NCBI GenBank assembly: GCA_963717505.1
Contig: OY970342.1
Span: 1,856,001-1,920,000 of the forward strand
Direction: 5' to 3'
Source: Candidatus Eiseniibacteriota bacterium
GTDB taxonomy: Bacteria > Eisenbacteria > RBG-16-71-46
Length of the DNA stretch: 64,000 bases
In this document: in pieces, positions 30,561 through 58,562 of the stretch
Numbering within the stretch: the first letter of the stretch is position 1
Layout of the letters: each line of letters opens with the position of its first letter
Translations under genes and position numbers: made by a program
The notes under the pieces: generated by a model
Seen by the model: the letters and a program-made list of their open reading frames with translations, nothing else
The model's database searches: none
What the model was told of the DNA's origin: nothing

Positions 30561-31122
30561 TGCCGTCCTTCCGGCGCAGCACCTCGCGGAACGGCCGCTC
30601 GGTCTTCTTGATCTTTTCCTGGAGCAACATCAGCGCCTGGATCACCGACTCGGGCCGCGGCGGGCAACCCTGGATGTAGGCGTCGACCGGCAGCAGCGTG
30701 TCGACGCCCTGGACCACGGAGTAGACGTCGTACATGCCGCCCGAGTTGGAGCAAGAGCCCATCGAGATGACCCAGCGCGGCTCCATCATCTGCTCGTAGA
30801 TCCGGACCAGCGCGGGCGCCACCTTCTTGAACACCGTGCCGGCGACGACCATCAGGTCGGCTTGCCGCGGCGATCCGCGCATGACCTCGGCGCCGAAGCG
30901 CGAGATGTCGTGGCGCGAGGTGATCGAGGTCGCCATCTCGACGAAGCAGCACGACAGACCGAAGAACATGGGCCACATCGAGTTCGCCCGACCCCAGTTG
31001 ACTAGGTCGTCGAGTTTGGCGAGGAGCAGCGAGTTCTCGAGCGCCTCGGGGATGGAGGAGGGTGCTTCGAGGGTGTTGGCGATGGTCGGTCGGACGTCCG
31101 TGGTCACTCGCACCTCGGGCAT
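30352..31122 (-). CDS. nuoB: NADH-quinone oxidoreductase subunit B (N-terminal domain of the probable nuoBCD fusion; frameshift near 30560)
   Basis: [33 protein letters not shown] and [10 protein letters not shown]. Confidence 0.9.
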
Positions 31123-31239
31123 GGAGGCTGGCGTGCGATGGCTTGGATTCGATGGGTCAGGCTGTAGATATAGCTGAGGCGCGGGAAGTTAGCACATGCG
31201 GGTGGATGGGGGAGAAGCGGCGTCCGACCGAGATAGTCG

Positions 31240-31410
31240 TTGACCGGATCATGCCCCGGGCCTAGCCTTTTCTCACCTCCCTCCGCTTCGCGGAACGGAC
31301 GCCCCGCGCCGCGAAGCAGAATTTGGCTGGTCCGGATCCGGGATCGTTCGCCGCCGGTTGCTGCCCGGCTGCGGGACGAGCCGCCGCATGTGCCCCTTGC
31401 GCGGAGGTGA
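31240..31410 (+). promoter_or_regulatory. Promoter plus conserved structured 5' leader, copy 1
   Basis: TTGACC-N17-TAGCCT, then TCACCTCC; core CGGTTGCTGCCCG...CGAGCCG...GCCCCTTGC...GGAGGTG is shared with copies 2 and 3. Confidence 0.6.
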
Positions 31411-31413
31411 TCG

Positions 31414-34400
31414 ATGGCCAAGTCCCTGGCGATGCTCCTGCTCACAGGAGCGTCCACGTTGCTGCCGAGCCTGTTGCTGGCAGCCCCCGATTTCACGGAC
31501 GTCGATGCGCAGCCGGTGTTGATGAACGCCGGCATGGCGCGTGAGCTGCAGTCGCGGAGCACGTCCCTTGCCACCGCGGCGAACGTCATCGACACGGTCT
31601 ACGTCGGCTACACGCCTGGCCACACGAGCCACAACTGGTGGTCCGTTTGGTCCGGGGCCGACAAGTTCCACGACGGTGGCCCTTATCGAAAGCCACCGGC
31701 ACAGGGCGGCATGTGGGACTTCGAGGGACCGTACCCCAACGGCGATTCGCTGCAGGGCTGGACGCCGGTGCGCAATCAGATGAGCGGCACGGGTGGCATC
31801 ACGATCCCCGACTATCAGCGCCCGTGGCGGTGCGTGGACTATGGCAACGAGGCCAGTGCGGTCATCCCCGGAGTTGGGCGAACGGGTGGTGTGGTCGGCG
31901 TGTGGCACGTGGACGCGGGCGACCTCCAAGCGGTGCCCGCATCGGTCGACGACGCGGCCGACGGACTCAACGGCGCCGGCCCGGGGGTCGGTGGCGTCAA
32001 CTGGACTCCGCTCGCCGGCAGCGCGTCGGCGTGGATGGGCCTGAGGCGTCACGGCGACAACACGCACGTTGACGACGTGAGCCGTGGTGGCACGGGCAAC
32101 CCGTTCAACGAGGACGCGCTGGTGTTCAGCGCGCTCCTGGGCTCGGTCTCGCTCGGCGGCACCGACAAGCGCTTCCCCGGCTACGGCGACCAGATGGACC
32201 AGATGCTGTACCGCGACGTGGACGTGACCGGCACGGGAACCCTGACGGTCGCCTTCTCCTACCGGACGAGGCTCGCGACCGGCGTGATCACCGCCAACAT
32301 CACGCGCTCCGGCTGGTTCCAGTGGGATCCGCTGACCGTACTGACCGGCGGAACCAACCCGAACTTCATCGCCAGCACGGGCAACGAAACGCCGCCGGCA
32401 GATTCGTTCATGGTCTACGTCGGCGCGCCCGCCGAGAGCGTGGTCGTGCTGTCGGACAACGATCCGCACCCGATCTACGACAAGAAGCGTCGCTGGGCGG
32501 GAGAGGTGATCCGCGGCAACCAGGGCCTGTATACCCAGATCCTGAGCGTCGGGGGCACCGTGCCGCCGACCGCGTTCAGTGCCACGGTGAGCGCGGCCGA
32601 GCTGGACCGCATCACGGCATCGCCGACCGCCGGAGTCTCGAACCGGGTGCGCATCGTGTTCCGGGTCAAGACCAACCAGACCTTCAGCGACGAGAGCGTG
32701 AACCAAACCGGTTCGTCGTCCGAAGGCGTGGGGGCCGCGATCGTCGATGCCGTAACGATCTCCAAAGATGCCGGACCCGCATCGAGCGTCGGAGCTTTCG
32801 AGACGCCGGACGAGATCGACAACTCGAGCGACTACGGGCCCTACGGGAACGTGTCACACCCGAATCATCCGCAGAACGTGTGGAAGTCGACCGGCAAGCC
32901 GGTCAAGGTCTACACACACGTGCACCCGATGGCGGGGGACATCGGCCGCGGTTACATCCCGCTGGTCTACCAGGACATCTGCGGCCAGCCCGGCAACCCG
33001 GCCCGCATCTGCGACCTCGACGGCACCGTGGCCTCGGCGGGTGACCACGACAACTTCGAGTCGTCCGGTGGCGTGTTCGGCACGGCCGAGCAGGATCCCT
33101 TCGACGGCATGTACTCGCCCGCCATCAACCTGACCGGCCAGGGCTTCACGACCCGGTTGATCAATGGAGTCGTGACCTCGGTGAACAACATGGGTCTGTC
33201 GGCGGACGACGCCGACGCGACCGCGGACTACTACCTCGACTACGAGCTGTACGCCGGCCGGTTCAATATCTTCACCACCGGTTCCGCCTGGCGCGTCGGC
33301 TGTATCAGCTACCCGGGGGCCAACACTGCGACGGGCGCCGGCGAATACAAGCGCTGGGGCCAGGTCCGGTTCCCTGGGTTCATCAACTTCAACCCCGACA
33401 AGCAGTGCTTCCGAATCCTCGATGGCATCCGAACCTTTGGCATGATGCGAACCAGCAACGTCTCCGGGATCCCCGACTCGCTCCGGATCTTCGTCGGCAC
33501 GCGACAGGAGGCTTACCGTTTCGGCGTTCCGGTATCCGAGAACTTCGACGGTGGTTACTGGGACAACCTGAGCCTGGCGATCGTGGACGGGGTGGACGCG
33601 GACCCGGTGTCGGTCGACATCTGGCACTTGTACCAGGACACCTTCCCGAGGAACGAGAACGACGGACTGGTCGGCTTCACCGCCGCGTTCGACACGACGT
33701 CGGGACTCATGAAGAGCGGTCTCAACATCGCCCAGACCACCGGGAACCAGTTGCGATTCACGGTACCCGGCGACACGACGGTGGTGATCGCGGAGGGCGA
33801 CAACGTCCGCATCGACCTGGTGTTCCGCATCCTTCCGGGTCCGGGGAACCATACGAACCCGGGTGCGGCGCCGGCTGCCCAGCGCCTCAAGCGGCTGCCG
33901 ACCGCCCCCACGCCGATCACCGGGGGCGTCGTCGGCTCCGCGAACTTCTGGGAAAACTACATGGGCGACCGGGGCGCCAAGGGCGCAGGAACGCATCCGT
34001 CGCCGCGCTGGAGCCCCCAGGTCTGGCACTCGGCGCGCATGGACACTGCTGAAGTCAACATCTTCCAGCAGCAGAGCCGGATCAACGCACAGCCGGCCAA
34101 CGCCGGTCTATTCATGACCGCGTATCACGAAGACGAGATCACCACGGGCAACCGCCGCGCGCTGGCGATCGCCCGCAACCTCTGCTTCATCGCCGACACC
34201 GCGGCCGCGGTTTCGACGAACATGGTGATCTGCGGCTCGGGCGCGATGCCGGCGGGTGCTGTGTATCCGCCGGCGTGGGCGTTCGCGGCGGGCTCTGGAT
34301 TGGCGACTGCCGGTACTGGCGATCCTACGGCGTCCCCGGGCCAGGTTCAGAGCTGCCCGGGACCCGCCGGGGCCGGACTGTGTCGGACGATCGAAGGAAC

Positions 34401-35913
34401 CAAAATTCTGCCCGACGGTCTGTTCACGCCCGGAACGCACATCGCATACTTCTTCCGGCGCGAGGACCTGCCGCCGTCGTCGCCGAGCACGTTCCTGTGC
34501 CCGGATACCACCCAGGTGTCCCCGCAGCTCTCCGAAGGGTCAACCGACGGACACCGCTGGCAGGAGATGTCGGTGCTGCCCGACCGGTGGAAGGACAGTG
34601 ACTACGTTCATCCGGTGCTTGGCACCCCCGGCAACGGCGAAGCCTGCGTGTTGTTCGTCGACAACAACGATCGCCGCGGCAACGAAAGGGTGTGGATGGG
34701 CATGGCCGACACGCTCGGCATGAACGCAGCGGCGAAACGTGGCGCCAGTAATGGCTGGAGCGCGGCCGGGGGCGGCGCCGACGTCAACGACCCGGTCTAT
34801 TTCGTGCGCCGGCACGTCGGCCAGGCTGGGACGACCTTCGACAAATACGACATCAAAGCGTCGGAGTCCCTCGGTACCCACTCGGGCAGCCTCGGGAGCC
34901 GAATCGGGTTCTCGAACCCCGCGAACACGCAGATCGACGGCAAGCGTTCGTTCAACGGCCCGTCGCCGATCATGCTGACTACGTTCTACAAGTTGCTCGT
35001 GATCCTGACCGGCGACCTGAACTCGAGCATTTGGGGCCCGTTCAACAATAAGAGTGCGAACGACGCCGGGATCATGACCTCGTTCGCAACCAGTGGCGAT
35101 CCGTCGGACCCGAACCGCGGCTTCTACGTCGCCGGGAACGGCTGGAACGAAGCCGCGACCGGGCCGGCGTACACTTTCATCACCTCGATCCTGGGCACCG
35201 ACCTGATCAACGTGAGCTATCTGGCCAACTCGGGAAACACGGCCTTCCAGGCGGATGTTGTCCCCACAGCGGCATTGCCGTCCGCCACGGGCGACGTCTG
35301 GGCGGTCAACAACTCGTGCACGTTCACCCTTGACGTCCAGTGGCCGATCTTGGCTGAGGCGACCGAAGCCACGTTCTACGAGGATCCGTTCGAAAACGGC
35401 CCCCATCCGTCAGGCATCTTCAAGTCGCATACCGCGCTCAACCCGTGGATCGCTCTCTCGGACGGCTGGGACATCGAGGACTTCCTGCAACGCGACCAGC
35501 GGTTCCCGCGGCAGCCGTGCGGCTACTACTACAAGGCGTTCCAGGACGCGTTTTACTCCATCGCCGGGTGCAATATTGTCGGCCAGCCCTTTCAGTGTTT
35601 CATCGCAGTCGTGGAAGGAGAACGCCGGCTCGTGAACTTCATGCACCTGAGCAACAACCCGGTGCGTTCCGGCTACGCGACGTTCACGATCGGTCTGGCT
35701 CGAGGCGACCGAGTCAAGATCCAGTTGTTCGACGTGGCTGGGCGATTGGTTCGCACGCTGGCCGACCGCAACTTCATAGCCGGCGAGCACGCGCTCACCT
35801 GGGACGGAGTCGACAACTCCGGACGCCGCGCCGCGCGGGGCGTCTACTTCGCGAGAGTCGAGTACCAGAACCAGGGCTTCAAGGAGAACGGCAAGCTGGT
35901 GCTCTTGAAGTAG
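31414..35913 (+). CDS. Giant secreted protein, paralog 1 (1499 aa), with C-terminal FlgD-Ig/T9SS-like domain
   Basis: GGAGGTG RBS, signal peptide, colinear with the genes at 53881 and 58563; tail NNPVRSG...FDVAGRLVRTL...WDGVDNSG...GVYF...KLVLLK. Confidence 0.85.
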   Translation: MAKSLAMLLLTGASTLLPSLLLAAPDFTDVDAQPVLMNAGMARELQSRSTSLATAANVIDTVYVGYTPGHTSHNWWSVWSGADKFHDGGPYRKPPAQGGMWDFEGPYPNGDSLQGWTPVRNQMSGTGGITIPDYQRPWRCVDYGNEASAVIPGVGRTGGVVGVWHVDAGDLQAVPASVDDAADGLNGAGPGVGGVNWTPLAGSASAWMGLRRHGDNTHVDDVSRGGTGNPFNEDALVFSALLGSVSLGGTDKRFPGYGDQMDQMLYRDVDVTGTGTLTVAFSYRTRLATGVITANITRSGWFQWDPLTVLTGGTNPNFIASTGNETPPADSFMVYVGAPAESVVVLSDNDPHPIYDKKRRWAGEVIRGNQGLYTQILSVGGTVPPTAFSATVSAAELDRITASPTAGVSNRVRIVFRVKTNQTFSDESVNQTGSSSEGVGAAIVDAVTISKDAGPASSVGAFETPDEIDNSSDYGPYGNVSHPNHPQNVWKSTGKPVKVYTHVHPMAGDIGRGYIPLVYQDICGQPGNPARICDLDGTVASAGDHDNFESSGGVFGTAEQDPFDGMYSPAINLTGQGFTTRLINGVVTSVNNMGLSADDADATADYYLDYELYAGRFNIFTTGSAWRVGCISYPGANTATGAGEYKRWGQVRFPGFINFNPDKQCFRILDGIRTFGMMRTSNVSGIPDSLRIFVGTRQEAYRFGVPVSENFDGGYWDNLSLAIVDGVDADPVSVDIWHLYQDTFPRNENDGLVGFTAAFDTTSGLMKSGLNIAQTTGNQLRFTVPGDTTVVIAEGDNVRIDLVFRILPGPGNHTNPGAAPAAQRLKRLPTAPTPITGGVVGSANFWENYMGDRGAKGAGTHPSPRWSPQVWHSARMDTAEVNIFQQQSRINAQPANAGLFMTAYHEDEITTGNRRALAIARNLCFIADTAAAVSTNMVICGSGAMPAGAVYPPAWAFAAGSGLATAGTGDPTASPGQVQSCPGPAGAGLCRTIEGTKILPDGLFTPGTHIAYFFRREDLPPSSPSTFLCPDTTQVSPQLSEGSTDGHRWQEMSVLPDRWKDSDYVHPVLGTPGNGEACVLFVDNNDRRGNERVWMGMADTLGMNAAAKRGASNGWSAAGGGADVNDPVYFVRRHVGQAGTTFDKYDIKASESLGTHSGSLGSRIGFSNPANTQIDGKRSFNGPSPIMLTTFYKLLVILTGDLNSSIWGPFNNKSANDAGIMTSFATSGDPSDPNRGFYVAGNGWNEAATGPAYTFITSILGTDLINVSYLANSGNTAFQADVVPTAALPSATGDVWAVNNSCTFTLDVQWPILAEATEATFYEDPFENGPHPSGIFKSHTALNPWIALSDGWDIEDFLQRDQRFPRQPCGYYYKAFQDAFYSIAGCNIVGQPFQCFIAVVEGERRLVNFMHLSNNPVRSGYATFTIGLARGDRVKIQLFDVAGRLVRTLADRNFIAGEHALTWDGVDNSGRRAARGVYFARVEYQNQGFKENGKLVLLK

Positions 35914-35928: not shown

Positions 35929-35966
35929 TGTCCGGTTGCGGGACCCGCGAGTCCCACAACCGGACA
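35929..35966. promoter_or_regulatory. Inverted repeat; candidate enhancer (bEBP binding site) or terminator hairpin
   Basis: TGTCCGGTTGCGGGAC-N6-GTCCCACAACCGGACA (15/16 match); each arm is itself a TGTCC...GGAC(A) pseudo-palindrome. Confidence 0.5.
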
Positions 35967-36041
35967 CTCCGGGCCCGTTCGCCGAAAGCGGCCCTGGCGC
36001 CAACTCGCTGCGCGGCAACGAGTGGGCCGGATTCCCCACTC

Positions 36042-36057
36042 CGGCACGATACTTCTA
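36042..36057 (+). promoter_or_regulatory. Possible sigma54 -24/-12 promoter (degenerate -12)
   Basis: CGGCACGATACTTCTA versus consensus TGGCACGNNNNTTGCW; the -12 GC is CT here. Confidence 0.35.
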
Positions 36058-36070
36058 TATAGGGACGGGC

Positions 36071-37312
36071 ATGGATGTCCCTCGCAAACCCCGTCCCGAC
36101 CGCCGTCCGCTCTACTACGGCGGCGCCGTGCTCACCCTGATCGCGGTCACCGTCGGCTTCAGCCGGCTCAAGCCCGCGGCCCCCTCGGTCGAGCGCGCAA
36201 CGCTGTGGACCGATGTGGTCCAGCGCGGCCCGATGCTGCGCCAGGTGCGCGGCTCGGGGACCCTGGTTCCCGAGCAGATGCGCTGGATCCCGGCGGTGAC
36301 CGCCGGTCGGATCGAGCGCATCTTCGTTCGTCCCGGCACACGCGTGGAGTCGAGCACCGTGTTGCTCGAGCTGAGCAACCCGGACGTCCAGCTCGAAGCT
36401 CTCGACGCCGACCGCCAGCTCTCGCTCGCCGAGCAGGGGCTCGCGAGCCTCGAGTCCTCGCTGACCACCGGGGTCATCGCCCAGGAGGGTGCCGTGGCCA
36501 CCGCGCACAGCGAGCACAGTGAGGCCAAGCGCGCGGCCGCCGGCGCCGAGCGGCTGAACCAGGAAGGGCTGATCTCTTCCAACGAACTGGAGCGCGCCCG
36601 CGACCGCGTGACCGAAATGGCCACCCGGTACGAAGGCGAGACCAAGCGTCTCGAAGTGATGCGCAACAGTTCGCACACGCAGCTCGATCTCCAGCGCGCG
36701 CAGGTCGAGCGCCTGCGCGCGATCGCGCGCTTTCACCAGGGTCGCGTGGCTTCGATGAAGGTCCTCGCGGGTGCGGCCGGGATGTTGCAGGAGATGAATC
36801 TGGAAGAAGGGCAGTGGGTGAATCCCGGCCAGTTGCTCGGCAAGGTCGCGCAGCCCGAACGGCTGAAGGCGGTGTTGCGCGTACCCGAGACCCAGGCCAA
36901 GGACGTACAGATCGGCCAGTCGGTCGAGGTCGACACGCGCAACGGCAAGGTGAGCGGCGTCGTCTCACGCATCGATCCCTCGGTCCAGGAGGGGACGGTG
37001 TCGGTCGACGTCTCGCTCCAGGGCGAGTTACCGGCCGGCGCGCGGCCCGATCTGAGTATCGACGGAACGATCGAGATCGAGCGGCTGGGCAGCGTCCTCC
37101 ACGTCGGGCGTCCGGCCATGGGTTCGAGCGGAACCACAGTCGGACTCTTCCGGCTCGAGCCGGGCGGACGCGAAGCGGTGCGGGTCCCAGTGCGTCTCGG
37201 CCGCACGTCGGTCAACCACGTCGAGATCGTCGATGGTCTCGACGTCGGCCAGGAAGTGATTCTTTCCGACATGTCCCGCTGGGACAACGTCGATCGCGTT
37301 CGCATCCGATGA
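36071..37312 (+). CDS. Efflux periplasmic adaptor (HlyD/MacA family membrane fusion protein)
   Basis: N-terminal TM segment, VQRGPMLRQVRGSGTLVP, coiled-coil hairpin, GVVSRIDPSV and VEIVDGLDVGQEVI. Confidence 0.9.
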   Translation: MDVPRKPRPDRRPLYYGGAVLTLIAVTVGFSRLKPAAPSVERATLWTDVVQRGPMLRQVRGSGTLVPEQMRWIPAVTAGRIERIFVRPGTRVESSTVLLELSNPDVQLEALDADRQLSLAEQGLASLESSLTTGVIAQEGAVATAHSEHSEAKRAAAGAERLNQEGLISSNELERARDRVTEMATRYEGETKRLEVMRNSSHTQLDLQRAQVERLRAIARFHQGRVASMKVLAGAAGMLQEMNLEEGQWVNPGQLLGKVAQPERLKAVLRVPETQAKDVQIGQSVEVDTRNGKVSGVVSRIDPSVQEGTVSVDVSLQGELPAGARPDLSIDGTIEIERLGSVLHVGRPAMGSSGTTVGLFRLEPGGREAVRVPVRLGRTSVNHVEIVDGLDVGQEVILSDMSRWDNVDRVRIR

Positions 37313-37365
37313 TGCGGACTCACGAGAACCAGGCCGGTCCGACCGGCGGAGGAAAGGAGCAACGC

Positions 37366-38154
37366 ATGATCGAAGCACCGATGCTCACGTCGCGGACCGG
37401 CGGCAACGGCGGCAGCACCACGATGTCGCCGGCCAAAGGTGCGGCCCCGGTACGGTCGAACCACGGCGAAGTCCTGCTCAAGCTGGACAACGTCGCCAAG
37501 GTCTTCTACACCGACGAAGTCGAGACCCACGCCCTGTCCGAGGTTCATCTCGAGATTCGCAAGGGCGAGTACGTCTCGATCGCTGGTCCGTCCGGCTGCG
37601 GCAAGTCCACGCTGCTCTCGATCCTCGGCCTGCTCGACTCGCCGACCGACGGGCGCTATCAGCTCAAGGACCGGCCGGTCGAGAGCCTGAAGCTGTCGGA
37701 ACGCGCGCGCATCCGGAATCGGGAGATCGGATTCATCTTCCAGAGCTTCAACCTGATCGGCGACCTGTCGGTCTACGAGAACGTGGAGCTGCCGCTGACC
37801 TATCGCGGCATGGCCGCCGTCGAGCGCAAGCGCCGGGTGAACGACGCGCTCGAGCGCGTGGGCATGGCGCACCGCACCAAGCACCTGCCGAGCCAGCTCT
37901 CGGGCGGCCAGCAGCAGCGCGTCGCCGTGGCGCGGGCGCTGGTCGGCGACCCGGCGATCCTGCTCGCCGACGAGCCGACCGGGAATCTCGACTCGCGAAA
38001 CGGCGAAGCGGTGATGGACCTGTTGCGCGAGCTGCATCGCGCCGGCGCGACGTTGTGCATGGTGACGCACGATCCGCGGTTCTCGCGTCATGCCGATCGC
38101 ACCATCCAGTTGTTCGACGGACGCATCGTGGAGGATCGCGCCGAGGTTCGCTAG
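37366..38154 (+). CDS. ABC transporter ATP-binding protein (LolD/MacB type)
   Basis: [24 protein letters not shown] and [10 protein letters not shown]; AAAGGAG RBS before ATG 37366 (alternative start 37309). Confidence 0.93.
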
Positions 38155-38179
38155 GACCTGGGCGCACGGAGGGCCGAAC

Positions 38180-40600
38180 GTGGACACGCTGTTCCAGGAT
38201 GTTCGCTACGCGTTGCGCTCGCTACGACGCACGCCGATGGTCACGATCCTCGCGGTGCTGTGCCTCGCGATCGGAATCGGAGTCAACACCACCATCTTCA
38301 GCGTGGTCGATGCCGCGTTCCTGAGCCCGTTCGGGTTCGACGAGCAGGACCGGCTGGTGGTGGTCAACGACCGCAGAATCAAGGGGGACGAGGACGACGG
38401 CGCCGGAGTCTCCTACGCAAACCTGAAAGACCTGGACGGCGCGGTGTCGTCGCTGGCCGGGATGGCGGCGGTCACCGACCGCAGCCTGACTCTGTCCGAC
38501 GGTGACGAGCCGCAGCGGTACCAGGGCGCGACCGTGACTTGGGACCTGTTTTCGCTGCTGGGCGTGGACCCCTCGCTCGGCCGCCACTTCCGTGAGGACG
38601 AGGATCAGGCCGGAGCCGCCGGGACGGTCATGCTCGGCGACAAGCTCTGGCGCGAGCGCTACCAGTCCGACCCGAAGATCGTCGGCAAAGCGATTCCAGT
38701 GAACGGCAAGCTGCACACGGTGATCGGCGTCATGCCGCCGCGCTTCGCATTCCCGCGCCGGCACGAGCTATGGATTCCGGTGGCGCCGATCGAGGCGGCG
38801 AACCCGCGCTCTAATCGCAACCTCGAGGTCTATGCCCGGCTGGCGCCGGGCGTCACGCTCGACCGCGCGCGCAACGAGATCGAGGCCGCGTCGTCGCGAC
38901 TCGCCGAGGTCTACCCGGCCGAGAACCAGGGCTGGGTCACCCGCCTGCGCCCGCTGCGGGAGGCACTGTTTCCGAAGGAGGACCGTCTGTCGATCCTGGC
39001 GATGATGGCGGCGGTCACCTGCGTGCTGCTGATCGCCTGCGCCAACGTCGCCAACCTGATGCTCACCCGCGCGACCGCGCGCGCCCGCGAGATCGCGATC
39101 CGCTCGGCGATCGGCGCCGGTCGCGGCCGGATCGTCCGCCAGCTGCTCACCGAGAGCGTGGTGATCGCGCTCGCGGCCGGGGCACTCGGCAGCCTGATCG
39201 CGGTCTGGGGACTCGACCTGATCGACGCCGCGATCTCGCCTGAGAATCGTCCCCCTTACTACTTCCAGTGGAAGATCGACCAGACCGCGCTGCTCTACAC
39301 CTTGGTGATCTCGATCGCGACCGGGATCCTGTTCGGACTCGCCCCCGCGATTCAGGCGTCGAAGGAGAACCTGACCAACGCGCTCAAGGACGGCGCGCGC
39401 GGCGCGCTGGCCGGGGGTCGCAATCGGCTGCGCAAGGGGCTGGTGATCGCCGAAGTCGCTCTGGCCCTGGTGTTGCTGGTTTCGGCGGCGCTGTTCGTCC
39501 GCAGCTTCACGACGCTCCAGGACCGGGAAGTCGGCTTCGATCCGTCGCGACTGATGACGCTGCGCATCTACCTGCCCGGCGAAGCCTACGTGCCGGACGA
39601 AGCCAAGCGGCTGCGGCTCGAGGACCTGGTGCGCCGCATCGAAGCGCTGCCGGGGGTCGAAGCCGCGGTCGCATCGAACACGATCGTGATGTCGGGGGGC
39701 GGTGGCGAGGACGGACTGATCATCGAAGGCCGCGACGTGGTTCGGGGCGAGGAGCCGCTGGCGTACTACACCGGCGTCACCGCGCACTGGCACCGGACGC
39801 TTGACGTGCCGATCGTGCGCGGCCGCGATCTGACCGAGTCCGAGGCGCAGACACGCTCGGGTGTGGCGGTGGTCACCGAGTCGTTCGGGCGCCGGCACTG
39901 GCCGGACCAGGATGCGATCGGCCGGCGCTTCGCGTTCGCCAACGAGGCCGAGCGGCAGTGGATCACGGTGGTCGGTATCGCACGTGACTACCACGTGAGC
40001 GGAGTCGACGACCGTGATGTCGTCCCGTTCATGGTGGTCGGCTATCCCTATGTGCCCACGCTCAACAACGGGATCACCGTTCGTGCCAAGTCCGGCGACC
40101 CGGCGCGCCTGATGCCCGCGATCCGCGGCGCGATCCGGGCCTCGGACGCGAGCCTTCCGGTGTTCGCGGTCAACACCATGGACGAGGTCCGCCGCGCCAG
40201 CTTCTGGGAGTACGGACTGTTCGGCTCGATGTTCACCATCTTCGGCGGCATCGCGCTATTGCTCGCGACGATCGGGGTCTACGGGGTCATCGCCTACGGC
40301 GTCAGCCAGCGGACCCACGAGATCGGCGTGCGCATGGCGCTCGGCGCTCATGAGCGCGACGTGCTCGGCATGGTGATGGGTCAGGGGTTGACGCTCGCCG
40401 GAATCGGCATCGGCATCGGGCTGGTCGCAGCCCTCGGCGCCGGCCGAGTGATCGCGAGCATCCTGTTCACCAGCCCGAGCGACCCGGTGAGCTTCGTCGG
40501 CATCGCCGTGCTGCTGACCGCGACCGTGGCGCTGGCGAGCTGGGTGCCGGCACGCCGCGCCGCCCGCGTCGATCCCATGGTCGCGCTTCGGCAGGACTAG
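38180..40600 (+). CDS. ABC permease, duplicated MacB/FtsX (ADOP-like) 1
   Basis: QDVRYALRSL, LLIACANVANL, REIAIRSAIGA, EIGVRMALGA and PARRAARVDPMVALR. Confidence 0.92.
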   Translation: MDTLFQDVRYALRSLRRTPMVTILAVLCLAIGIGVNTTIFSVVDAAFLSPFGFDEQDRLVVVNDRRIKGDEDDGAGVSYANLKDLDGAVSSLAGMAAVTDRSLTLSDGDEPQRYQGATVTWDLFSLLGVDPSLGRHFREDEDQAGAAGTVMLGDKLWRERYQSDPKIVGKAIPVNGKLHTVIGVMPPRFAFPRRHELWIPVAPIEAANPRSNRNLEVYARLAPGVTLDRARNEIEAASSRLAEVYPAENQGWVTRLRPLREALFPKEDRLSILAMMAAVTCVLLIACANVANLMLTRATARAREIAIRSAIGAGRGRIVRQLLTESVVIALAAGALGSLIAVWGLDLIDAAISPENRPPYYFQWKIDQTALLYTLVISIATGILFGLAPAIQASKENLTNALKDGARGALAGGRNRLRKGLVIAEVALALVLLVSAALFVRSFTTLQDREVGFDPSRLMTLRIYLPGEAYVPDEAKRLRLEDLVRRIEALPGVEAAVASNTIVMSGGGGEDGLIIEGRDVVRGEEPLAYYTGVTAHWHRTLDVPIVRGRDLTESEAQTRSGVAVVTESFGRRHWPDQDAIGRRFAFANEAERQWITVVGIARDYHVSGVDDRDVVPFMVVGYPYVPTLNNGITVRAKSGDPARLMPAIRGAIRASDASLPVFAVNTMDEVRRASFWEYGLFGSMFTIFGGIALLLATIGVYGVIAYGVSQRTHEIGVRMALGAHERDVLGMVMGQGLTLAGIGIGIGLVAALGAGRVIASILFTSPSDPVSFVGIAVLLTATVALASWVPARRAARVDPMVALRQD

Positions 40601-40602
40601 TC

Positions 40603-43044
40603 ATGGACGCCATCTTGCGCGATCTACGCCACGCCGTGCGCTCGTTGAGCCGGGCTCCGGGCCTGGTGATTGTCGTCGTCCTGTCGCTGGCACTCGGGAT
40701 CGGAGCCAATTCGACGGTGTTCAGCCTGATGAATGCCGTCGTGTTGCGGCCCATGCCCGCGGATCGGCCGGAGGAGCTGGCGATCCTCTACACCAGCGAG
40801 TCCGACGGCCGGAAGTGGGGCACGACGTCCTATCCGGACTACTTGGACTTCCGCGACGACGTGCGCGCGTTCCGGAGCCTCGGCGCCTACAGCGTGGCCC
40901 CGATCCAGCTCGCGAGCGGCGACGATCCGGCGCGGCGCGTCTTAGGGGGGATCGCCACCGGCAACTACTTCACCACGCTCGGGGTCGAAGCCGCCCTGGG
41001 CCGCACGCTCCAGCCGGCCGACGATGAGGCTCCGGGCGCGAGCCCTGTGGCGGTGCTGAGTCACAGCCTGTGGTCGCGAGCGTTTGGCAGCGACCCGACG
41101 GTGGTCGGACGGACCGTGCGGGTGAACGGCCATCCGTTCAGCGTGGTGGGTGTACTGCCGGAGCGCTTCAAAGGGCTGATGATGGGACTCGCGCCCGACC
41201 TCTGGGTGCCCACCGCCATGGTCGGCGCCGCCAATCCGAGCAGCGACCTGCTGACTCAGCGCGGCGGCCGATCCCTGATGGTCGTCGGCCGGCTCGCGCC
41301 CGGAGTCGACATTCGCGCCGCACGAGCCGAGTTGGACGGCGTGATGAGCCGGCTGGCCGCCGAGCATGTCGCCGACAGCGGCCGGGTGGCGACTCTGCTT
41401 CCGGAACGCGAAGCCCGAGTCATGCCCCAGGCGCGCGGCGCGCTTGTTGGATTCTTCGGTCTGCTGCTGGCGATCGTCGCCCTGGTGCTGGCGATCGCCT
41501 GCCTCAACGTTGCCGGCTTGATGCTGGCCCGGACCACGACCCGGCGGCGCGAGATCGGTATTCGACTGGCGCTCGGAGCCAGCCGGGCTCGACTGGTTCG
41601 CCAGCTCCTCACCGAGTGCGTCCTGCTCTCGCTGCTGGGCGGCGCTGCTGGACTGCTGCTCGCACAGTGGGGCACCGATCTCCTGCTCGCCTTCCGTCCG
41701 CCTTTGCCGTTCGACGTGGTGATCGACCTGAGGCCAGACGGCCGGGTGCTGGCGTTCACCATCCTGATTGCAATGGCAACCGGCATCGGCTTCGGTCTGG
41801 CGCCGGCGCTCGAGGCGGTTCGCCCCGACGTCCAGCCGGCGCTACGCGACACCGCGGGTGGGCCGCGCCGCTCGCGCATGCGCAGCGTTCTGGTCGTGGT
41901 TCAGGTGGCGCTGACCGTGGTGCTGCTCGCGGGCGCCGGACTCTTCCTGCGCGGACTCGAGCGCGCGGTGACGCTCGATCCGGGATTCGTCCCCGAGAAT
42001 CTCCACGCTCTGTCGTTCGACCTCGAGCTGACCGGCTACTCCACTGAACGAGGCTGGGCCTTCCAGGAACAATTGCTCGAGCGGGTGTCGGCGCTGGACG
42101 CGGTCGAGTCGGCGGCGATCACCGAGTACCTGCCGATGTCGCTGGGCTGGAGCAGGACCACGGTGTCGGTCGAGGGCGAGCCACCGCATGAAGGTTCGCC
42201 GCCCGAGATCTCGACCGGAATCGTGTCCGCGGGCTACTTCAAGACGATGCGGATTCCCATCGTCCACGGACGCGAGTTCTCGTCGTCAGATCGCGACGGC
42301 AGTCAGCCGGTGGCGATCGTGAACCAGAAGTTCGCGGAGATGCACTGGGCCGACCAGAATCCGATCGGCCGGCGGATCACGTTCGACGAGAACGGCCAGA
42401 CCGGCTGGATGACCGTGGTCGGCGTGGCGCGCAACGGCAAGTACCAACTCATCAACGAAGACCCGAGACCGTTCGTCTACGTGCTTTCGAGCCAGGCGGC
42501 GACCGAGCAACTGACTCTGGTGGCGCGTATCCCCGGCGATCCGCGCCAGGGTCTGGCCGCCATTCAGTCCGTCCTACGCTCTCTCGATCCCACGCTGCCG
42601 GTGTTCGAGATCCGGGCGGTCGAGGAGCTGCTGGGCGTGACGCTCACCCCGCTACGCATGGTGTCGTCGCTGCTCGCCGGGTTCGGCGTGCTGGGCATGC
42701 TCCTGGCCGCCATCGGGCTCTCCGGGCTGGTCGCGTTCTCGGCCAGCCAACGCACGCGCGAGATCGGCATTCGGTTGGCCCTAGGTGCGGTGCCCGAGCA
42801 GATCCTTTCGCTGGTACTCGGCCAGGGGATGCGTCTCGCATGGCTCGGGCTCGCGATCGGCTCCGTCCTCGCGGTTGCTGTGACCGGTCTGGTGCGTTCC
42901 TGGTTGTTCGGAGTCAGCTCCGCGGATCCATTGACCTATGCGGCAGTCACGTTGCTGATCACCGGAGTCACACTGCTCGCGGCCTGGATTCCCGCCCGCC
43001 GCGCGGCGCGTGTCGACCCCATGGTCGCCTTGAGACAAGAGTGA
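40603..43044 (+). CDS. ABC permease, duplicated MacB/FtsX (ADOP-like) 2
   Basis: Same duplicated MacB-PCD/FtsX architecture and C-terminal VDPMVALRQE. Confidence 0.92.
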   Translation: MDAILRDLRHAVRSLSRAPGLVIVVVLSLALGIGANSTVFSLMNAVVLRPMPADRPEELAILYTSESDGRKWGTTSYPDYLDFRDDVRAFRSLGAYSVAPIQLASGDDPARRVLGGIATGNYFTTLGVEAALGRTLQPADDEAPGASPVAVLSHSLWSRAFGSDPTVVGRTVRVNGHPFSVVGVLPERFKGLMMGLAPDLWVPTAMVGAANPSSDLLTQRGGRSLMVVGRLAPGVDIRAARAELDGVMSRLAAEHVADSGRVATLLPEREARVMPQARGALVGFFGLLLAIVALVLAIACLNVAGLMLARTTTRRREIGIRLALGASRARLVRQLLTECVLLSLLGGAAGLLLAQWGTDLLLAFRPPLPFDVVIDLRPDGRVLAFTILIAMATGIGFGLAPALEAVRPDVQPALRDTAGGPRRSRMRSVLVVVQVALTVVLLAGAGLFLRGLERAVTLDPGFVPENLHALSFDLELTGYSTERGWAFQEQLLERVSALDAVESAAITEYLPMSLGWSRTTVSVEGEPPHEGSPPEISTGIVSAGYFKTMRIPIVHGREFSSSDRDGSQPVAIVNQKFAEMHWADQNPIGRRITFDENGQTGWMTVVGVARNGKYQLINEDPRPFVYVLSSQAATEQLTLVARIPGDPRQGLAAIQSVLRSLDPTLPVFEIRAVEELLGVTLTPLRMVSSLLAGFGVLGMLLAAIGLSGLVAFSASQRTREIGIRLALGAVPEQILSLVLGQGMRLAWLGLAIGSVLAVAVTGLVRSWLFGVSSADPLTYAAVTLLITGVTLLAAWIPARRAARVDPMVALRQE

Positions 43045-43054
43045 GGAGATTGCG

Positions 43055-45463
43055 ATGACAGGCATCGGTCAGGATCTGCGTTTCGCGTGGCGCATGCTCG
43101 CCAAGAGTCCAGGCTTCACCGCGGTGGTCGTGGTGGTGATGGGACTCGGCATCGGCGTCAATGCCAGCATTTTCACCGCGGTGCGTGGCATCCTCCTTCG
43201 CCCGCTGCCGTTCTTCGAGCCCGATCGCATCATGGCGATCCAGTCGGCTGCACTCAATCGCCAGGGCGAGTACATGGAGATGTCGTCTCCCGACTATTCC
43301 GACGTGGCCACGCGGTCCAAATCGTTCACCGCGCTCGGCGCCTGGACCGAGAGCCAGGCGTACCTGACGATCGGCAACGATCCCGAGCGCTTTGAAAGCG
43401 GGATGATCACGCCGTCTCTGTTCGGCGTGCTGGGTGTTCGCCCGATCCTCGGTCGCGACTTCCTGCCCGAGGAAGGCGTCGAAGGCAAGCAGCTTTCATC
43501 GGTCCTGATCAGCCATCGCATCTGGAAGAATCGGCTCGGCTCCGATCCCGACGTCGTGGGTCGCACCTTCCGGATGAACGGCCGGGTGCGCACCGTAGTC
43601 GGGGTCATGGGACCCGGATTCCAGTTCCCCGAGACCGCGGACTTCTGGATCCCGATGGCGTTGGACCCCGTCAAAGATCACCGAGCCGGGCGGTTCCTGG
43701 ACGTGGCCGCTCGCCTGCGTCCGGGCGTGACGGCGGCCGCCGCTGGTGCTGAGGTCCAAGGCGTCGCCCAGGTCGTGGCGCGCGTACATCCCGAGACCAA
43801 CGAACATATTGGCGCCCGCGTTCTACCGCTGCGCGAGTCAATGGTCGAGGAGGTCCGGCCGGCGATGGCCATGCTCATGGTCGCCGTCGGATTCGTGTTG
43901 CTCATCGCCTGCGCCAACGTGGCGAATCTGATGCTGGCTCGCGCTTCGGCGAGGCAACGCGAGCTAGGATTGCGCACAGCCCTCGGTGCCGGCCGTGCGC
44001 GCATCGCGCGTCAGTTGTTGACCGAGAGCCTGCTGGTCGCTGGACTCGGCGGGGCGCTCGGGGTGGTCATCGCGTACTGGGCCAACGACCTGATCCTGGC
44101 CTCGATTCCCCAGGAGCTGCCGTTCTGGATGCGAATCGAGGTCGATGGCATGGTCCTGCTCTACGCGATCCTGATCACGCTGGGTTCGGGCATTCTGTTC
44201 GGGTTGGCGCCGCTGCTGCACATGTCGGTGCGCCGGCTCCAGGAGTCGATTCGGGAAGGCAGCGGCCAGTCCGGCGTCGGCCGCGGCGCGGCGCGAGTGC
44301 GCAACGCGCTGGTGGTCGCCGAAGTCGCGCTGGCCATGGTGCTGCTGGTCGGCGCCGGTCTCATGATCCGGAGCTTCCTGTACAAGCAGGAAGTGCGCGG
44401 AGCCCTCGATCCGAGCGGGGTGCTCACGGGCCGCGTCACGCTGCCGGTCGCCAGCTACACCGACGACGATGCCCGGCGCCGATTCTTCACCGAAGTGGTG
44501 CAGCGGGTGGCGGCGTTGCCCGGTGTGACTCGAGCCTCGGCGATCAACGTGCTGCCGATGGGGAACGACCTGTGGATCACGTCCGTGATGCGTGAGGGGA
44601 CCGAGGACGTGCGCAGCAATGCCCCAGACGTCGGCTTCGCGTTCATCCTGCCTGGCTATTTCGAAACCATGCGAATCCAGTTGGTCGCTGGGCGCGAGTT
44701 CACCTGGGACGATGACCAGGATGCTCCGCCGGTCGCGATCGTCAACCAGTCGGCCGCGCGCCAGCTGTGGCCGGGCGAGGATCCGATTGGCAAGCGATTC
44801 GCGACCAGCTTCACCGACTCGGGCGCCGTGCTCACCGTGATCGGCGTCGTCACCGACGTTCGGCCGCACGCCGAGCACAGCCGGGTCGCCCAGTTGTTCG
44901 TACCGCACCTTGCGGATCCGGTGCAGACCATGACCCTGGTGGTGCGGACCGAGGGCGAGCCTGCGGCCCTGACTCCGGCCATCCGCGGCTTGCTTCGGGA
45001 ACGCGACCCCGATCTGCCGTTCTACGACGTAGCGAGCATGTCGGCCTCGATGAGCCGCGCCCTGTGGGAGCCACGGCTCTACACCTGGTTGATGAGCGTC
45101 TACTCGGTTCTGGCGGTGGTGCTCGCCGCGGTTGGCATTTACGGCGTCATGGCGTTCCGGGTCGCCCAGCGCACGCAGGAGATCGGCATCCGCATGGCGC
45201 TGGGCGCCGCCCAGAGCACGGTCCTGCGCATGGTGGTCGGCCAGGGCTTGTTATTGGCGGTGATCGGACTCGGAATTGGCACAGCGGGGGCCTACGGACT
45301 CACCCGCTTCATGGCCGACTTGCTGTTCGGCGTGCGGGCCGATGACCCGCCGACCTTCGTCGGCGTGGCGGTGATCCTGGCGGTGACCGCGGTGCTGGCG
45401 TGCTGGGTGCCCGCGTATCGCGCCTCGCGCGTCGACCCGATGGTCGCGCTCCGACACGAGTGA
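43055..45463 (+). CDS. ABC permease, duplicated MacB/FtsX (ADOP-like) 3
   Basis: QDLRFAWRML, LLIACANVANL, EIGIRMALGA and VDPMVALRHE. Confidence 0.92.
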   Translation: MTGIGQDLRFAWRMLAKSPGFTAVVVVVMGLGIGVNASIFTAVRGILLRPLPFFEPDRIMAIQSAALNRQGEYMEMSSPDYSDVATRSKSFTALGAWTESQAYLTIGNDPERFESGMITPSLFGVLGVRPILGRDFLPEEGVEGKQLSSVLISHRIWKNRLGSDPDVVGRTFRMNGRVRTVVGVMGPGFQFPETADFWIPMALDPVKDHRAGRFLDVAARLRPGVTAAAAGAEVQGVAQVVARVHPETNEHIGARVLPLRESMVEEVRPAMAMLMVAVGFVLLIACANVANLMLARASARQRELGLRTALGAGRARIARQLLTESLLVAGLGGALGVVIAYWANDLILASIPQELPFWMRIEVDGMVLLYAILITLGSGILFGLAPLLHMSVRRLQESIREGSGQSGVGRGAARVRNALVVAEVALAMVLLVGAGLMIRSFLYKQEVRGALDPSGVLTGRVTLPVASYTDDDARRRFFTEVVQRVAALPGVTRASAINVLPMGNDLWITSVMREGTEDVRSNAPDVGFAFILPGYFETMRIQLVAGREFTWDDDQDAPPVAIVNQSAARQLWPGEDPIGKRFATSFTDSGAVLTVIGVVTDVRPHAEHSRVAQLFVPHLADPVQTMTLVVRTEGEPAALTPAIRGLLRERDPDLPFYDVASMSASMSRALWEPRLYTWLMSVYSVLAVVLAAVGIYGVMAFRVAQRTQEIGIRMALGAAQSTVLRMVVGQGLLLAVIGLGIGTAGAYGLTRFMADLLFGVRADDPPTFVGVAVILAVTAVLACWVPAYRASRVDPMVALRHE

Positions 45464-45471
45464 GGGACATC

Positions 45472-46572
45472 ATGCGAACTCGAGCCTTTTGGTGGCTGTT
45501 GGCGCTCGCGACGGGCATCGGTCTGCTCGCCGCCCTGGCGCCGATCCCGAGGGCGTTGGCGGCCGAGAGTCCGCTCGATCTGATCGAGCGCGGACGTTGG
45601 CGCGAAGCAAAGGCGATCCTCGAGCCGCGGGTCGCCGCGAATGCGTCCGACGCCGAGGCGGCCTGGCTGCTGTCGCGGGTGCGGCTGGCCTATGACGACA
45701 ACCAGGGCGCGCTCCAACTGGCCGAGAAGGCGGTGGCACTCGACGACGCCGACGCGCGTTTCCACGAGCAGCTGGCGATGGTGCTGGGCGACAAGGCGCA
45801 GGATGCCGGTCCGTTGTCGCAGATGCGTCTCGCCGGAAAATTCAAGAAGGAGGCGGATCGCGCGGTCGCGCTCGATCCGCGCCGCTTCCGGGCGCAGCAA
45901 GCGCTGCTGTCCTTCTACGTGAAAGCGCCGGGGATCGCCGGCGGCAGCAAGGAGAAGGCGCGCGCCAAGGCGGAAGAGATCCTGGCGCTCGATCCGGTCG
46001 AAGGCCAACTCGCGCACGCCCGGCTGGCGATGGAGCTGAAGGATTCGACGGCGGCGCTCGATCGCTATCGCAAGGCCGTGGCCGCCGACCCCGAGAGTTA
46101 TGAGGCGCGGATTGCACTGGCGAGCGCCCTGGCACAGCGGCCCGCGAACCTGGCGGAGGCCGAGCAGCATGCACTCGAAGCCCGGCGCATCGACTCCGGC
46201 CGCATCGGATCGTGGGCGTTGCTGGCCGGCATTTACGCGCACAACAGACGCTGGCCGGAACTCGATGCTCTGCTCGCGGAAGCACGCAGCGCGGTGCCCG
46301 GCAATCGCTCGGCCGAGTACTCGGCGGCGCGCACGATGGTCGTCACGCGCAGCGATCCGGCGCGCGCCGAACGACTGCTGCGCGACTACCTCACCGTCGA
46401 GCCGGAACCGGAATCCCCCGGACGTGCCGCCGCTCACTGGCGGCTGGCGCTGGCGCTCGAGCAGCAGGACCGCGGCCGCGAAGCCGTCGCCGAGCTGGAA
46501 TCGGCGGTTCGACTGGATCCCGATTTCGAGCCGGCGAAGAAAGACCTGAAACGCATGAGGAAGCAATCATGA
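45472..46572 (+). CDS. Exported tetratricopeptide repeat protein
   Basis: Signal peptide, Ala-rich helical TPR-like repeats and a KAPGIAGGS motif; ATGA overlap with the next gene. Confidence 0.8.
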   Translation: MRTRAFWWLLALATGIGLLAALAPIPRALAAESPLDLIERGRWREAKAILEPRVAANASDAEAAWLLSRVRLAYDDNQGALQLAEKAVALDDADARFHEQLAMVLGDKAQDAGPLSQMRLAGKFKKEADRAVALDPRRFRAQQALLSFYVKAPGIAGGSKEKARAKAEEILALDPVEGQLAHARLAMELKDSTAALDRYRKAVAADPESYEARIALASALAQRPANLAEAEQHALEARRIDSGRIGSWALLAGIYAHNRRWPELDALLAEARSAVPGNRSAEYSAARTMVVTRSDPARAERLLRDYLTVEPEPESPGRAAAHWRLALALEQQDRGREAVAELESAVRLDPDFEPAKKDLKRMRKQS

Positions 46573-47327
46573 ACGGCACACAGCACGTCCCGACCACGGG
46601 CGAGGGGCCGGGGAACGTAGCCGCCACCGGAACGCTCCTGCGCACGGTTGGCCTCGACAAGAACTTCGGCCAGGGCAATGCCCGAACCTGGGTGCTGCGC
46701 GGCGTGTCGCTCGAAGTGCAGGAAGGCGAATTCGTCTCGATCATGGGGCCGTCGGGGGCCGGCAAGTCGACGCTGCTCCACATCCTCGGCATGCACGAAA
46801 GTGCGTGGGAAGGCGAGTACTGGTTCCTCGACGAGCCGGTGCACGCGCTCAAGCCTCACGCCCGGGCGGCGCTGCGCAACCGGAACATCGGCTTCGTCTT
46901 CCAGCAGTACCACTTGCTCGACGACCTGACCGTCTACGAGAACATCGAGATCCCGCTCAGCTACCGCAACGTGCCCAAGTCCGAGCGCGCCGGCATCGTC
47001 GCCGAGGTGCTCGACCGTTTCCAGATCGTGGGCAAGAAGGACCTGTATCCGCGCCAGCTCTCGGGCGGCCAGCAGCAGCTGGTGGCGATCGCGCGCGCGA
47101 TCGTGGCCAAGCCGCGGCTGATTCTCGCCGACGAGCCGACCGGCAACCTGCACTCCGACCAGGGTCGCGAAATCATGGAGCTGTTCGAGCGCCTGAACCG
47201 GGCCGGCACCACCATCCTGCAAGTCACTCATTCCGACAGCAATGCCCGCTACGGGCACCGCGTCATTCGCCTGCGCGACGGTTGGATCGATGCCGCTCGG
47301 TCGGAAGGCGCGACCCCTTCCGTGTGA
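46569..47327 (+). CDS. ABC transporter ATP-binding protein (LolD/MacB type) 2
   Basis: GPSGAGKST, LSGGQQQLVAIARA and LADEPTGNL. Confidence 0.93.
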   Translation: MNGTQHVPTTGEGPGNVAATGTLLRTVGLDKNFGQGNARTWVLRGVSLEVQEGEFVSIMGPSGAGKSTLLHILGMHESAWEGEYWFLDEPVHALKPHARAALRNRNIGFVFQQYHLLDDLTVYENIEIPLSYRNVPKSERAGIVAEVLDRFQIVGKKDLYPRQLSGGQQQLVAIARAIVAKPRLILADEPTGNLHSDQGREIMELFERLNRAGTTILQVTHSDSNARYGHRVIRLRDGWIDAARSEGATPSV

Positions 47328-47334
47328 GGCGGCC

Positions 47335-53657: not shown

Positions 53658-53876
53658 TTGACTCGCCGTCGAGTCCGGTCCTAGCATTTCCGTACCTCCT
53701 CTCCGGCTCAAGAACGGACGGGCCCCCCGCCGTCCGACAGGGATGTCAGGTCGTAAGGGCGGACCCCCAGCCGTCCAACAAGGATTGGGAAGCACGATCC
53801 GGGAAATCGTTCGTCGGTCGGTTGCTGCCCGAACGCCGAACGAGCCGATTGCAACTGCCCCTTTGCAACGGAGGTG
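53658..53876 (+). promoter_or_regulatory. Promoter plus conserved structured 5' leader, copy 2
   Basis: TTGACT-N18-TAGCAT, ACCTCC, two C-loop hairpins and the shared core at 53819-53876. Confidence 0.6.
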
Positions 53877-53880
53877 TGCC

Positions 53881-58374: not shown

Positions 58375-58383
58375 CGCAGGGGT

Positions 58384-58558: not shown

Positions 58559-58562
58559 TTCC

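Follow-up and report, generated by a model that had tools for sequence, protein, structure and literature searches.

A conserved 5′-leader element of three giant-protein genes in an Eisenbacteria genome, and the leader of their fourth paralog

Results

Three giant-protein genes and the motif in their leaders

Three genes for giant proteins lie on the forward strand of the window, the 64,000-nucleotide stretch analyzed here, which covers positions 1856001–1920000 of the single 4.16-Mb contig (C1, 67.7% G+C) of a Candidatus Eiseniibacteriota genome (G000) whose completeness is rated 86.7%. Judged by protein, the closest relative with a name is a Candidatus Eisenbacteria MAG. Giant protein 1 (31414–35913, 1499 aa) has a signal peptide and a C-terminal FlgD_ig/type IX secretion system (T9SS)-type sorting domain, and proteins 2 (53881–58374, 1497 aa) and 3 (58563–63128, 1521 aa), which are encoded by adjacent genes, have the same architecture with a signal peptide and a C-terminal FlgD_ig domain. 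Besides FlgD_ig, no family match was found in any of the three. A fourth paralog lies outside the window (G000:C1:1649877–1654379), and the four proteins are 74–78% identical. The subject of this work is a short element in the 5′ untranslated region (5′-UTR) of the three window genes, which a preliminary description of this DNA had proposed as a cis-regulatory RNA.

The motif given in that description was recovered letter for letter. CGGTTGCTGCCCG begins at 31355, 53819 and 58504 and is followed in each leader by CGAGCCG, YGCA, GCCCCT(T)TGC and CGGAGGTG, in that order, ending at 31409, 53876 and 58558. The exact 13-mer CGGTTGCTGCCCG has these three sites only within the window, and of the 22 genome-wide occurrences of the seed GGTTGCTGCC the three that continue with the motif are the window copies. 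The anti-Shine–Dalgarno (anti-SD) tracts also stand where they had been placed, with TCACCTCC at 31273–31280, ACCTCC at 53694–53699, and CCTCC and TCCGTTG at 58453–58457 and 58462–58468; measured from the anti-SD to the ATG (31414, 53881 and 58563), the leaders are 141, 187 and 110 nt long, in agreement with the earlier figures of about 140, 185 and 110 nt. In every copy, the module is on the same strand as the gene, with a promoter-like hexamer pair before it and the Shine–Dalgarno sequence (SD) after it. The preliminary description called it shared by all three giant-protein genes, a statement left incomplete by the fourth paralog, which has a different leader.

In copy 1, the candidate promoter-like hexamers TTGACC (31240–31245) and TAGCCT (31263–31268), read from the sequence with a 17-nt spacer, form a block that can be aligned with that of copy 2. 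Two tandem anti-SD tracts follow, UCACCUCC (31273–31280) and CUCCG (31281–31285), the first of which is the perfect complement of GGAGGUGA at 31403–31410 and is paired with it in the minimum-free-energy (MFE) fold. Downstream are a predicted mini-hairpin, P0 (31335–31345, GAUC-CGG-GAUC), that presents GGGA; a hairpin, P1 (31353–31369, GCCGG-UUGCUGC-CCGGC), with an invariant 7-nt loop; and CGAGCCG with hairpin P2 (31377–31404; CCG-C-CGCA, loop UGUGCCCCU, UGCG-CGG), whose final two G's double as the start of the SD. P1 and P2 belong to the RNAalifold consensus. The SD and ATG occupy 31403–31416, the SD GGAGGUGAUC being a 10-nt complement of the tail of the 16S ribosomal RNA (3′ end GGAUCACCUCCUUUCU) with a duplex energy of −20.3 kcal/mol.

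Copy 2 has candidate hexamers TTGACT (53658–53663) and TAGCAT (53682–53687) with an 18-nt spacer, and anti-SD tracts GUACCUCC (53692–53699) and UCUCCG (53700–53705), of which the MFE fold pairs 53693–53699 with the SD. P0 (53795–53809, CGAU-CCGGGAA-AUCG), P1 (53818–53832, UCGG-UUGCUGC-CCGA) and CGAGCCG with P2 (53841–53871; CCG-A-UUGCAA, loop CUGCCCCU, UUGCAA-CGG) lead to the SD GGAGGUG and ATG (53870–53883; −14.4 kcal/mol). Copy 3 has two candidate −10 boxes, TAGAAT (58438–58443) and TAGGTC (58448–58453), and which of them is used determines whether its first anti-SD tract, CCUCC (58453–58457), is transcribed. Its second tract, UCCGUUG (58462–58468), is the complement of CAACGGA at 58546–58552, and both are unpaired with the SD in the MFE fold. 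P0 (58483–58494, CGAU-CUGG-AUCG), P1 (58503–58517, CCGG-UUGCUGC-CCGG) and CGAGCCG with P2 (58525–58553; CCG-C-UGCA, loop GGCGCCCCU, UGCA-A-CGG) precede the SD GGAGGUG and ATG (58552–58565; −15.1 kcal/mol).

Two features are common to these leaders besides the motif. The SDs are unusually strong, with complements of 7–10 nt to the 16S tail and duplex energies of −14.4 to −20.3 kcal/mol, and a second anti-SD tract (CUCCG, UCUCCG and UCCGUUG, complementary to CGGAG or CAACGGA) lies directly behind the first. The tandem pattern CCTCC-N0-6-TCCG was found in all three leaders and, among 258 control genes that have GGAGG as their SD, in just 4, a comparison in which the pattern was defined post hoc and the copies are kin.

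The core is conserved above the neutral level and is non-coding

Conservation no higher than that of neutral duplication residue had been named as grounds for discarding the element, and the element survives this comparison. Across the three copies, 46 of 66 positions of the leader core are invariant, well above the silent-site level in the same genes, where 190 of 559 four-fold sites (34%) are identical three ways (binomial P = 3.5e-9). With CGGAGGTG to the ATG set aside, 34 of 51 positions are invariant (P = 1.9e-6). Pairwise identity is 0.67–0.74 in positions −66 to −1, 0.14–0.50 further upstream, and 0.47–0.55 in the first 90 coding bases, which are signal-peptide codons, so that the core is an island of identity between diverged flanks, a pattern gene conversion does not explain. 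Within the core, the loop letters are invariant while the stems and spacers vary. Silent sites of the four G000 paralogs are near saturation, with a four-fold-site identity of 0.50–0.59 as compared to the 0.35–0.39 expected from composition alone.

Single-base indels between the copies, together with an in-frame TGA (31408–31410) two codons before the copy 1 ATG, indicate that the leader is non-coding. An upstream open-reading frame or an N-terminal extension of the window genes was considered and ruled out by the same TGA and by indels that are not multiples of three. The element is a conserved, non-coding 5′-UTR element that has been under selection and is lineage-specific.

The element is confined to one genome as far as searched

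The earlier remark that this was not recognized as a known riboswitch agrees with the database search, since the whole window gave no match in Rfam 15 at the gathering threshold. In E-value mode, the three leaders gave junk only, at 11–19 bits as compared to thresholds of 34–90 bits, and no match was obtained at the gathering threshold for 8 related loci. The covariance-model search that had been suggested was carried out with a model of the core (R1) on 89 genomes of the family, among which G000 is the only member of its genus. The three copies scored 86–87 bits, while the best match in the other 88 genomes reached 30 bits. Inspection of the 14 best foreign matches showed none in front of a giant-protein homologue and the majority in stretches without a usable start codon. 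An unfiltered R1 search of 33 loci of other paralogs gave nothing significant.

Pattern searches of wider collections were consistent with this. A pattern of 25 specified bases had one match in metagenome contigs (L184), in a stretch of lower G+C content where neither an SD nor a start codon follows the motif, and we read this match as chance. A pattern of 18 specified bases gave more than 119 chance matches in unrelated taxa among genome contigs and was uninformative. As far as searched, the window element is confined to G000. A literature search found nothing linking Eisenbacteria with a riboswitch or with an S-layer.

Consensus folds of the three leaders

RNAalifold of the three cores gave P1 as YCGG, loop UUGCUGC, CCGR, and an extended P2. 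In the latter, CGAGCCG contributes its CCG and CGGAGG its CGG to one set of pairs (columns 31–33 with 55–57), and YGCA with UGCR closes a loop that contains GCCCCU. With CCG:CGG at the base of P2, the first two G's of the SD sit in the stem. All 23 P1 and P2 cells are standard pairs, as compared to 0–50% with slid partners, and one or two compensatory changes can be counted in the element; the pair that closes P1 is C-G except in copy 2, where it is U-A. G-U pairs are used in the P2 extension of copy 3 and in the anti-SD helix of copy 2. In the MFE folds of the full leaders, the 5′ CACCUCC or ACCUCC is paired with GGAGGUG in copies 1 and 2, and a 5′-terminal helix is seen on the predicted transcripts.

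Transcription starts were placed solely from the pattern TTGACY-17/18-TAGCNT. A sigma-70 promoter scan listed no promoter within 31000–31500, the −10 box of copy 1 being absent from its listing because it matches at just 3 of 6 positions, and a sigma-54 −24/−12 pattern had no gene-strand match in any of the three leaders. Of the claim that each transcript begins with an anti-SD, the tracts themselves are present, while the start is a prediction from these promoter-like hexamers.

The fourth paralog has a widespread, structured leader

The leader of the fourth paralog (L004:1283–1488, corresponding to G000:C1 about 1649674–1649879) belongs to a type, here called wide-type, that was also found among loci L006–L033 and L185–L214. 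It is about 200 nt long and nearly invariant across genera whose proteins share only about 40–60% identity, the 3′ 85 nt included. A covariance model of its 3′ 99 nt (R2) matched 71 of the 89 family genomes at an E-value of 1e-17 or better (41 of the 44 high-quality ones), with one copy per genome and two in one genome. In G000, the 3′ domain (G000:C1:1649782–1649879) scored 91 bits. In 151 genomes sampled from the phylum, R2 matched 7 of 9 genomes from two other families of the order at 25–41 bits, including G038, and none of 82 genomes from the remaining families of the phylum. In the four compared (G038, G040, G043 and G044), the match lies directly upstream of the homologous gene. The wide-type leader has no Rfam match in gathering or E-value mode.

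The 5′ hairpin of the wide-type leader (loop GAACUGCCUAA; modeled as R3), which sits at the start predicted from a −10-like box, has double changes in 8 of 9 pairs, and its covariation of 92 cells compares to 38.7 ± 6.1 in shuffles (none of 500 as high) and 7–23 with slid partners. In the consensus fold, GAYACCUC is paired to GAGGUARUC, and 3 related sequences have one compensatory change in this helix, from C-G to U-A. A conserved SD-like tract, GGAAAGGGGGGAU (L020:1315–1328 and equivalents), precedes the start codon by about 150 nt and is itself followed by no conserved start; its duplex with the 16S tail (−18.0 kcal/mol) is stronger than that of the real SD of the wide-type leader (−14.4 kcal/mol). 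Of the 18 aligned sequences examined visually, 4 (L004, L006, L012 and L033) have the upstream ATG of this leader out of frame, so that an upstream reading frame or N-terminal extension was ruled out here too. The wide-type leader looks like an undescribed structured RNA of Eisenbacteria and is better supported as a new RNA than the window element.

One divergent wide-type leader (L240:68–164, minus strand) was observed to carry GCAGUGC in place of both GCAUUGC repeats when compared to L236 and L238. The change swaps a predicted U-U mismatch for G-G on both sides, for which the consensus fold gives no explanation.

New gene copies carry new leaders

The 34 loci examined comprise 18 with the wide-type leader, the 3 window copies, and 13 with other upstream sequences; about half of 20 extra paralog upstream stretches were left out because they held too little coding sequence to anchor the start codon. 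In a tree of 18 proteins, the four G000 paralogs form one clade (100/100) of unresolved internal order, whose sister is the wide-type gene of a neighboring genus. In genome G008 (L001 compared to L007), the wide-type gene has as its sister a paralog from the same genome that lacks this leader (100/99). These placements indicate that the duplications were recent, repeated and independent in different genera. Per genome, one copy keeps the ancestral leader and new copies get different ones, and the window leader is such a new leader, kept by three copies while their silent sites neared saturation.

The window and wide-type leaders serve the same family of giant FlgD_ig-tailed genes, both are absent from Rfam, and by eye both are built of an anti-SD of the ACCUC type, a hairpin whose loop is of the UGCCC type, and, a few nt further on, (C)GGAGGU. 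They differ in that the wide-type anti-SD is about 65 nt from the SD and not at the 5′ end, and in the covarying 5′ hairpin and SD-like G-run, both of which are missing from the window leaders. R2 and R3 gave no match at the three window leaders, and local alignments of window with wide-type leaders were not significant (P = 0.4–0.9). The common architecture is best described as an analogy, homology not having been detected.

Hairpins with C-rich loops a few nt upstream of the SD were also observed in the paralog leaders L031 (about 1400–1485), L026, L017 and L022, for example GCCCGCAU-CCCCC-AUGCGGGC, and L031 has TAGCCT followed by CUCCG, as in window copy 1. A hairpin with a CCC-containing loop adjoining the SD, a feature defined post hoc, was counted in 35 of the 258 control genes; within this gene family, it is seen in the window type, in the wide type and in four further classes of leader.

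Neighboring genes and candidate regulators

The region directly upstream of giant gene 2, at 50856–53572, encodes a response regulator that depends on sigma-54 (Response_reg, Sigma54_activat, HTH_8) together with a PAS histidine kinase. The interval 35936–49731, between the first two giant genes, holds genes for an HlyD-type membrane-fusion protein and for four large MacB_PCD/FtsX permeases (38090–40600, 40603–43044, 43055–45463 and 47242–49731). A G+C-rich inverted repeat without a U-tract, GGGGCGGGCGCGCCCGCCCC (58381–58410), immediately follows the stop codon of giant gene 2 and may be a terminator or processing hairpin that separates genes 2 and 3. Elsewhere in the genome, a csrA gene (PF02599, 91.4 bits; G000:C1:3982879–3983037, minus strand; L241) and an RNase E/G homologue (358 bits) were found, and RNase J was not found by TIGR00649, in a genome that is 86.7% complete.

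Discussion

A leader that may mask the ribosome-binding site

The element most likely acts on translation initiation. In the reading we favor, to which we give a probability of roughly 40%, it is a cis-acting RNA element that limits or gates initiation by masking the SD, with the invariant loops as recognition sites. The element would be a young 5′-UTR module of four parts, comprising P0, which would present GGA, P1 with its UUGCUGC loop, CGAGCCG, and P2 with its GCCCCU loop beside the SD. Masking would be both local, where CCG:CGG at the base of P2 would cover the first G's of GGAGG, and long-range, where the tandem 5′ anti-SD tracts (CCUCC, UCCG) would close the whole leader onto CGGAGGUG and bury the 5′ end too. 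A trans-acting partner that recognizes the invariant loops could then shift the balance. The family offers a precedent for such control, since the ancestral leader, with its covarying 5′ hairpin and its anti-SD:SD helix, is a structured RNA.

The predicted cost of opening the SD differs among the copies. In copy 1, it is 11.9 kcal/mol, a value reached by 1 of 100 upstream shuffles and within the top 2% of the 258 control genes (mean 5.4 ± 2.4 kcal/mol); in copy 2, it is 7.5 kcal/mol, and 14 of 100 upstream shuffles are as high.

Several results weigh against SD masking as the general mode of action. For copy 3, the opening cost is 2.3 kcal/mol, which 93 of 100 shuffles exceed, and both copy 2 and copy 3 fall in the average range of the control genes. 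Duplexes between the 5′ 30 nt and the SD were no better than those of random genomic 30-mers (fractions of 0.08, 0.34 and 0.50, the window used for copy 3 being too far downstream). The core is no more stable than shuffles (z of +0.9 to +1.6), and the full leaders are little different (z of −1.0 to +0.5). Just one P1/P2 pair is changed on both sides, and covariation as high as that observed arises in 163 of 500 shuffles, as could be expected from three sequences, in which covariation has no statistical power; the preliminary description had itself cautioned that three paralogous copies give little. Its second stem (CGCA/UGCG as compared to UGCA/UGCA) was right in its letters, while the covariation claimed for it is indistinguishable from that of shuffles, and its pairing of CGGUU with AGCCG is literally possible in a helix that never varies among the copies. 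P1 and P2 are also palindromes in DNA, so symmetric changes do not separate an RNA from a DNA element. In addition, the transcription start is a predicted position, downstream of which the CCUCC of copy 3 may not even lie, and the element is limited to three paralogous copies in 1 of 89 family genomes. The folds thus predict masking that is clear in copy 1, possible in copy 2 and not predicted in copy 3. Of the translational switch proposed at the outset, the conserved element and its SD complements are supported; a switch is not established, with strong masking predicted in copy 1 only.

Alternative explanations

An element with a paired 5′ end and a strong SD could also act on mRNA lifetime. 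The buried 5′ end and the loading of ribosomes at the SD would protect the giant transcripts from 5′-end-dependent decay, with no translational switch involved, an explanation we consider unlikely but credible. The first nucleotides are paired in the MFE folds of all three leaders, the window SDs are exceptionally strong, the RNase E/G homologue is present, and the ancestral leader begins with a covarying hairpin at its predicted start. A known system of this kind is STAB-SD, the mRNA stabilizer of cry3A, and the SD-like GGAAAGGGGGGAU of the ancestral leader resembles it as a tract without a start codon that pairs with the 16S 3′ end (PMC4113751). This likeness holds for the wide-type leader only.

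Stabilizers of the ompA type have a 5′-terminal stem-loop. With STAB-SD and ompA-type stabilizers the window leaders share their length, a secreted and probably abundant product, and a 5′ end that is predicted to be paired, the position of that end being itself a prediction. They lack an upstream SD-like tract and have anti-SD tracts at the 5′ end in its place, and a TIGR00649 search of this 86.7%-complete genome gave no RNase J, which is the nuclease that STAB-SD blocks. Stabilization also leaves the invariant loops and CGAGCCG unexplained.

Those loops are the starting point for an alternative that we regard as unlikely, in which the leader is a docking platform for a trans-acting regulator and the hairpins only present its sites. 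Either CsrA would bridge the GGAs of the P0 loop and the SD, or a protein or small RNA would read the UUGCUGC and GCCCCU loops. In leaders controlled by CsrA/RsmA, such as those of hag and glgC, one GGA site overlaps the SD and another lies in the loop of a hairpin. Each of the three window copies has a GGA in or at the P0 loop and another in CGGAGG, about 45–65 nt apart, a spacing that a dimer could bridge; csrA is present and the target is a costly exported protein. These GGA sites are putative, the triplet being common in DNA of 68% G+C, and the most conserved loops, UUGCUGC and GCCCCU, are not GGA sites. The loop letters are invariant where stems and spacers vary, as expected of recognition sites, and loops of the UGCC/GCCC type recur in the unrelated ancestral leader (GAACUGCCUAA, UUGCCCAU), though this recurrence was noticed post hoc. 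No candidate regulator is linked to the genes, whose regulatory neighbors are the sigma-54 activator and the PAS kinase.

These same neighbors bring in control at the DNA level, which we think quite unlikely. Here P1 (CCGG-N7-CCGG) and P2 (TGCA-N9-TGCA) would be operators for a roadblock transcription factor or for the adjacent two-component system. Since both are palindromes, one or two changes that appear compensatory are equally expected of symmetric operators, and the response regulator and kinase genes lie directly upstream of copy 2. Against this, the leaders have no −24/−12 match on the gene strand, and the sites are 10–60 nt from the start codon, downstream of the promoter-like boxes. 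Conservation is higher in their spacers, which are the loops of the hairpins, than in the half-sites, whereas operators usually show the reverse, and the G-U pairs in copies 2 and 3 also argue for RNA.

A ligand-sensing riboswitch, the strongest form of the translational switch, is very improbable. Mutually exclusive pairings can be drawn, of CGG(UU) with CCG or AGCCG and of CCG with the CGG of the SD, and the invariant loops and the missing Rfam match speak in its favor. Riboswitch aptamers are typically old and widespread, and this element is limited to three paralogs in 1 of 89 genomes, with a small core that has no multi-helix junction, no stability signal and no covariation beyond that of shuffles, upstream of genes that are not for metabolism or small-molecule transport. 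There is no sign of a ligand-sensing switch, and the riboswitch reading is not supported. That the element has no function and is a residue of duplication or of gene-conversion homogenization, as its three carriers in one lineage-specific clade, two of them adjacent, might suggest, is scarcely tenable given a core that is 70% invariant beside nearly saturated silent sites and with both flanks diverged, including the first 90 coding bases.

Relation to known systems and significance

As a masking leader, the element can be compared to the ROSE and fourU RNA thermometers, in which likewise a tract complementary to the SD, upstream of it, occludes ribosome binding and no ligand is needed. In those thermometers, the anti-SD lies in the same short hairpin as the SD, and the genes controlled are for heat shock or virulence. 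The window anti-SD tracts, which are proposed to occlude in the same way, lie 110–185 nt upstream of the SD, outside its hairpin, strong masking is predicted for a single copy, and the genes encode 1500-aa proteins with FlgD_ig/T9SS tails and not heat-shock or virulence regulators; no ROSE or fourU match was found on the three leaders up to an E-value of 10. An SD-masking leader is a known kind of device, of which the window element would be an uncatalogued example. A bolder proposal, that the window and ancestral leaders are two forms of a new riboregulator class controlling giant T9SS-type surface proteins, in which a sensor, be it a protein, a small RNA or a metabolite, reads UGCC/GCCC-rich loops, the SD is opened or is closed by the upstream anti-SD, and each duplicate rebuilds its own version, appears to us a long shot.

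Taken alone, the window element is of modest weight, being young, found in one genome and without statistical backing, and it led to the better supported wide-type RNA. Since one copy keeps the ancestral leader while duplicates acquire others, the gene family is a natural experiment on how 5′-UTR control is rebuilt after gene duplication. If the masking reading is true, this uncultured phylum would control its largest and costliest exported proteins by structured leaders that mask the ribosome-binding site.

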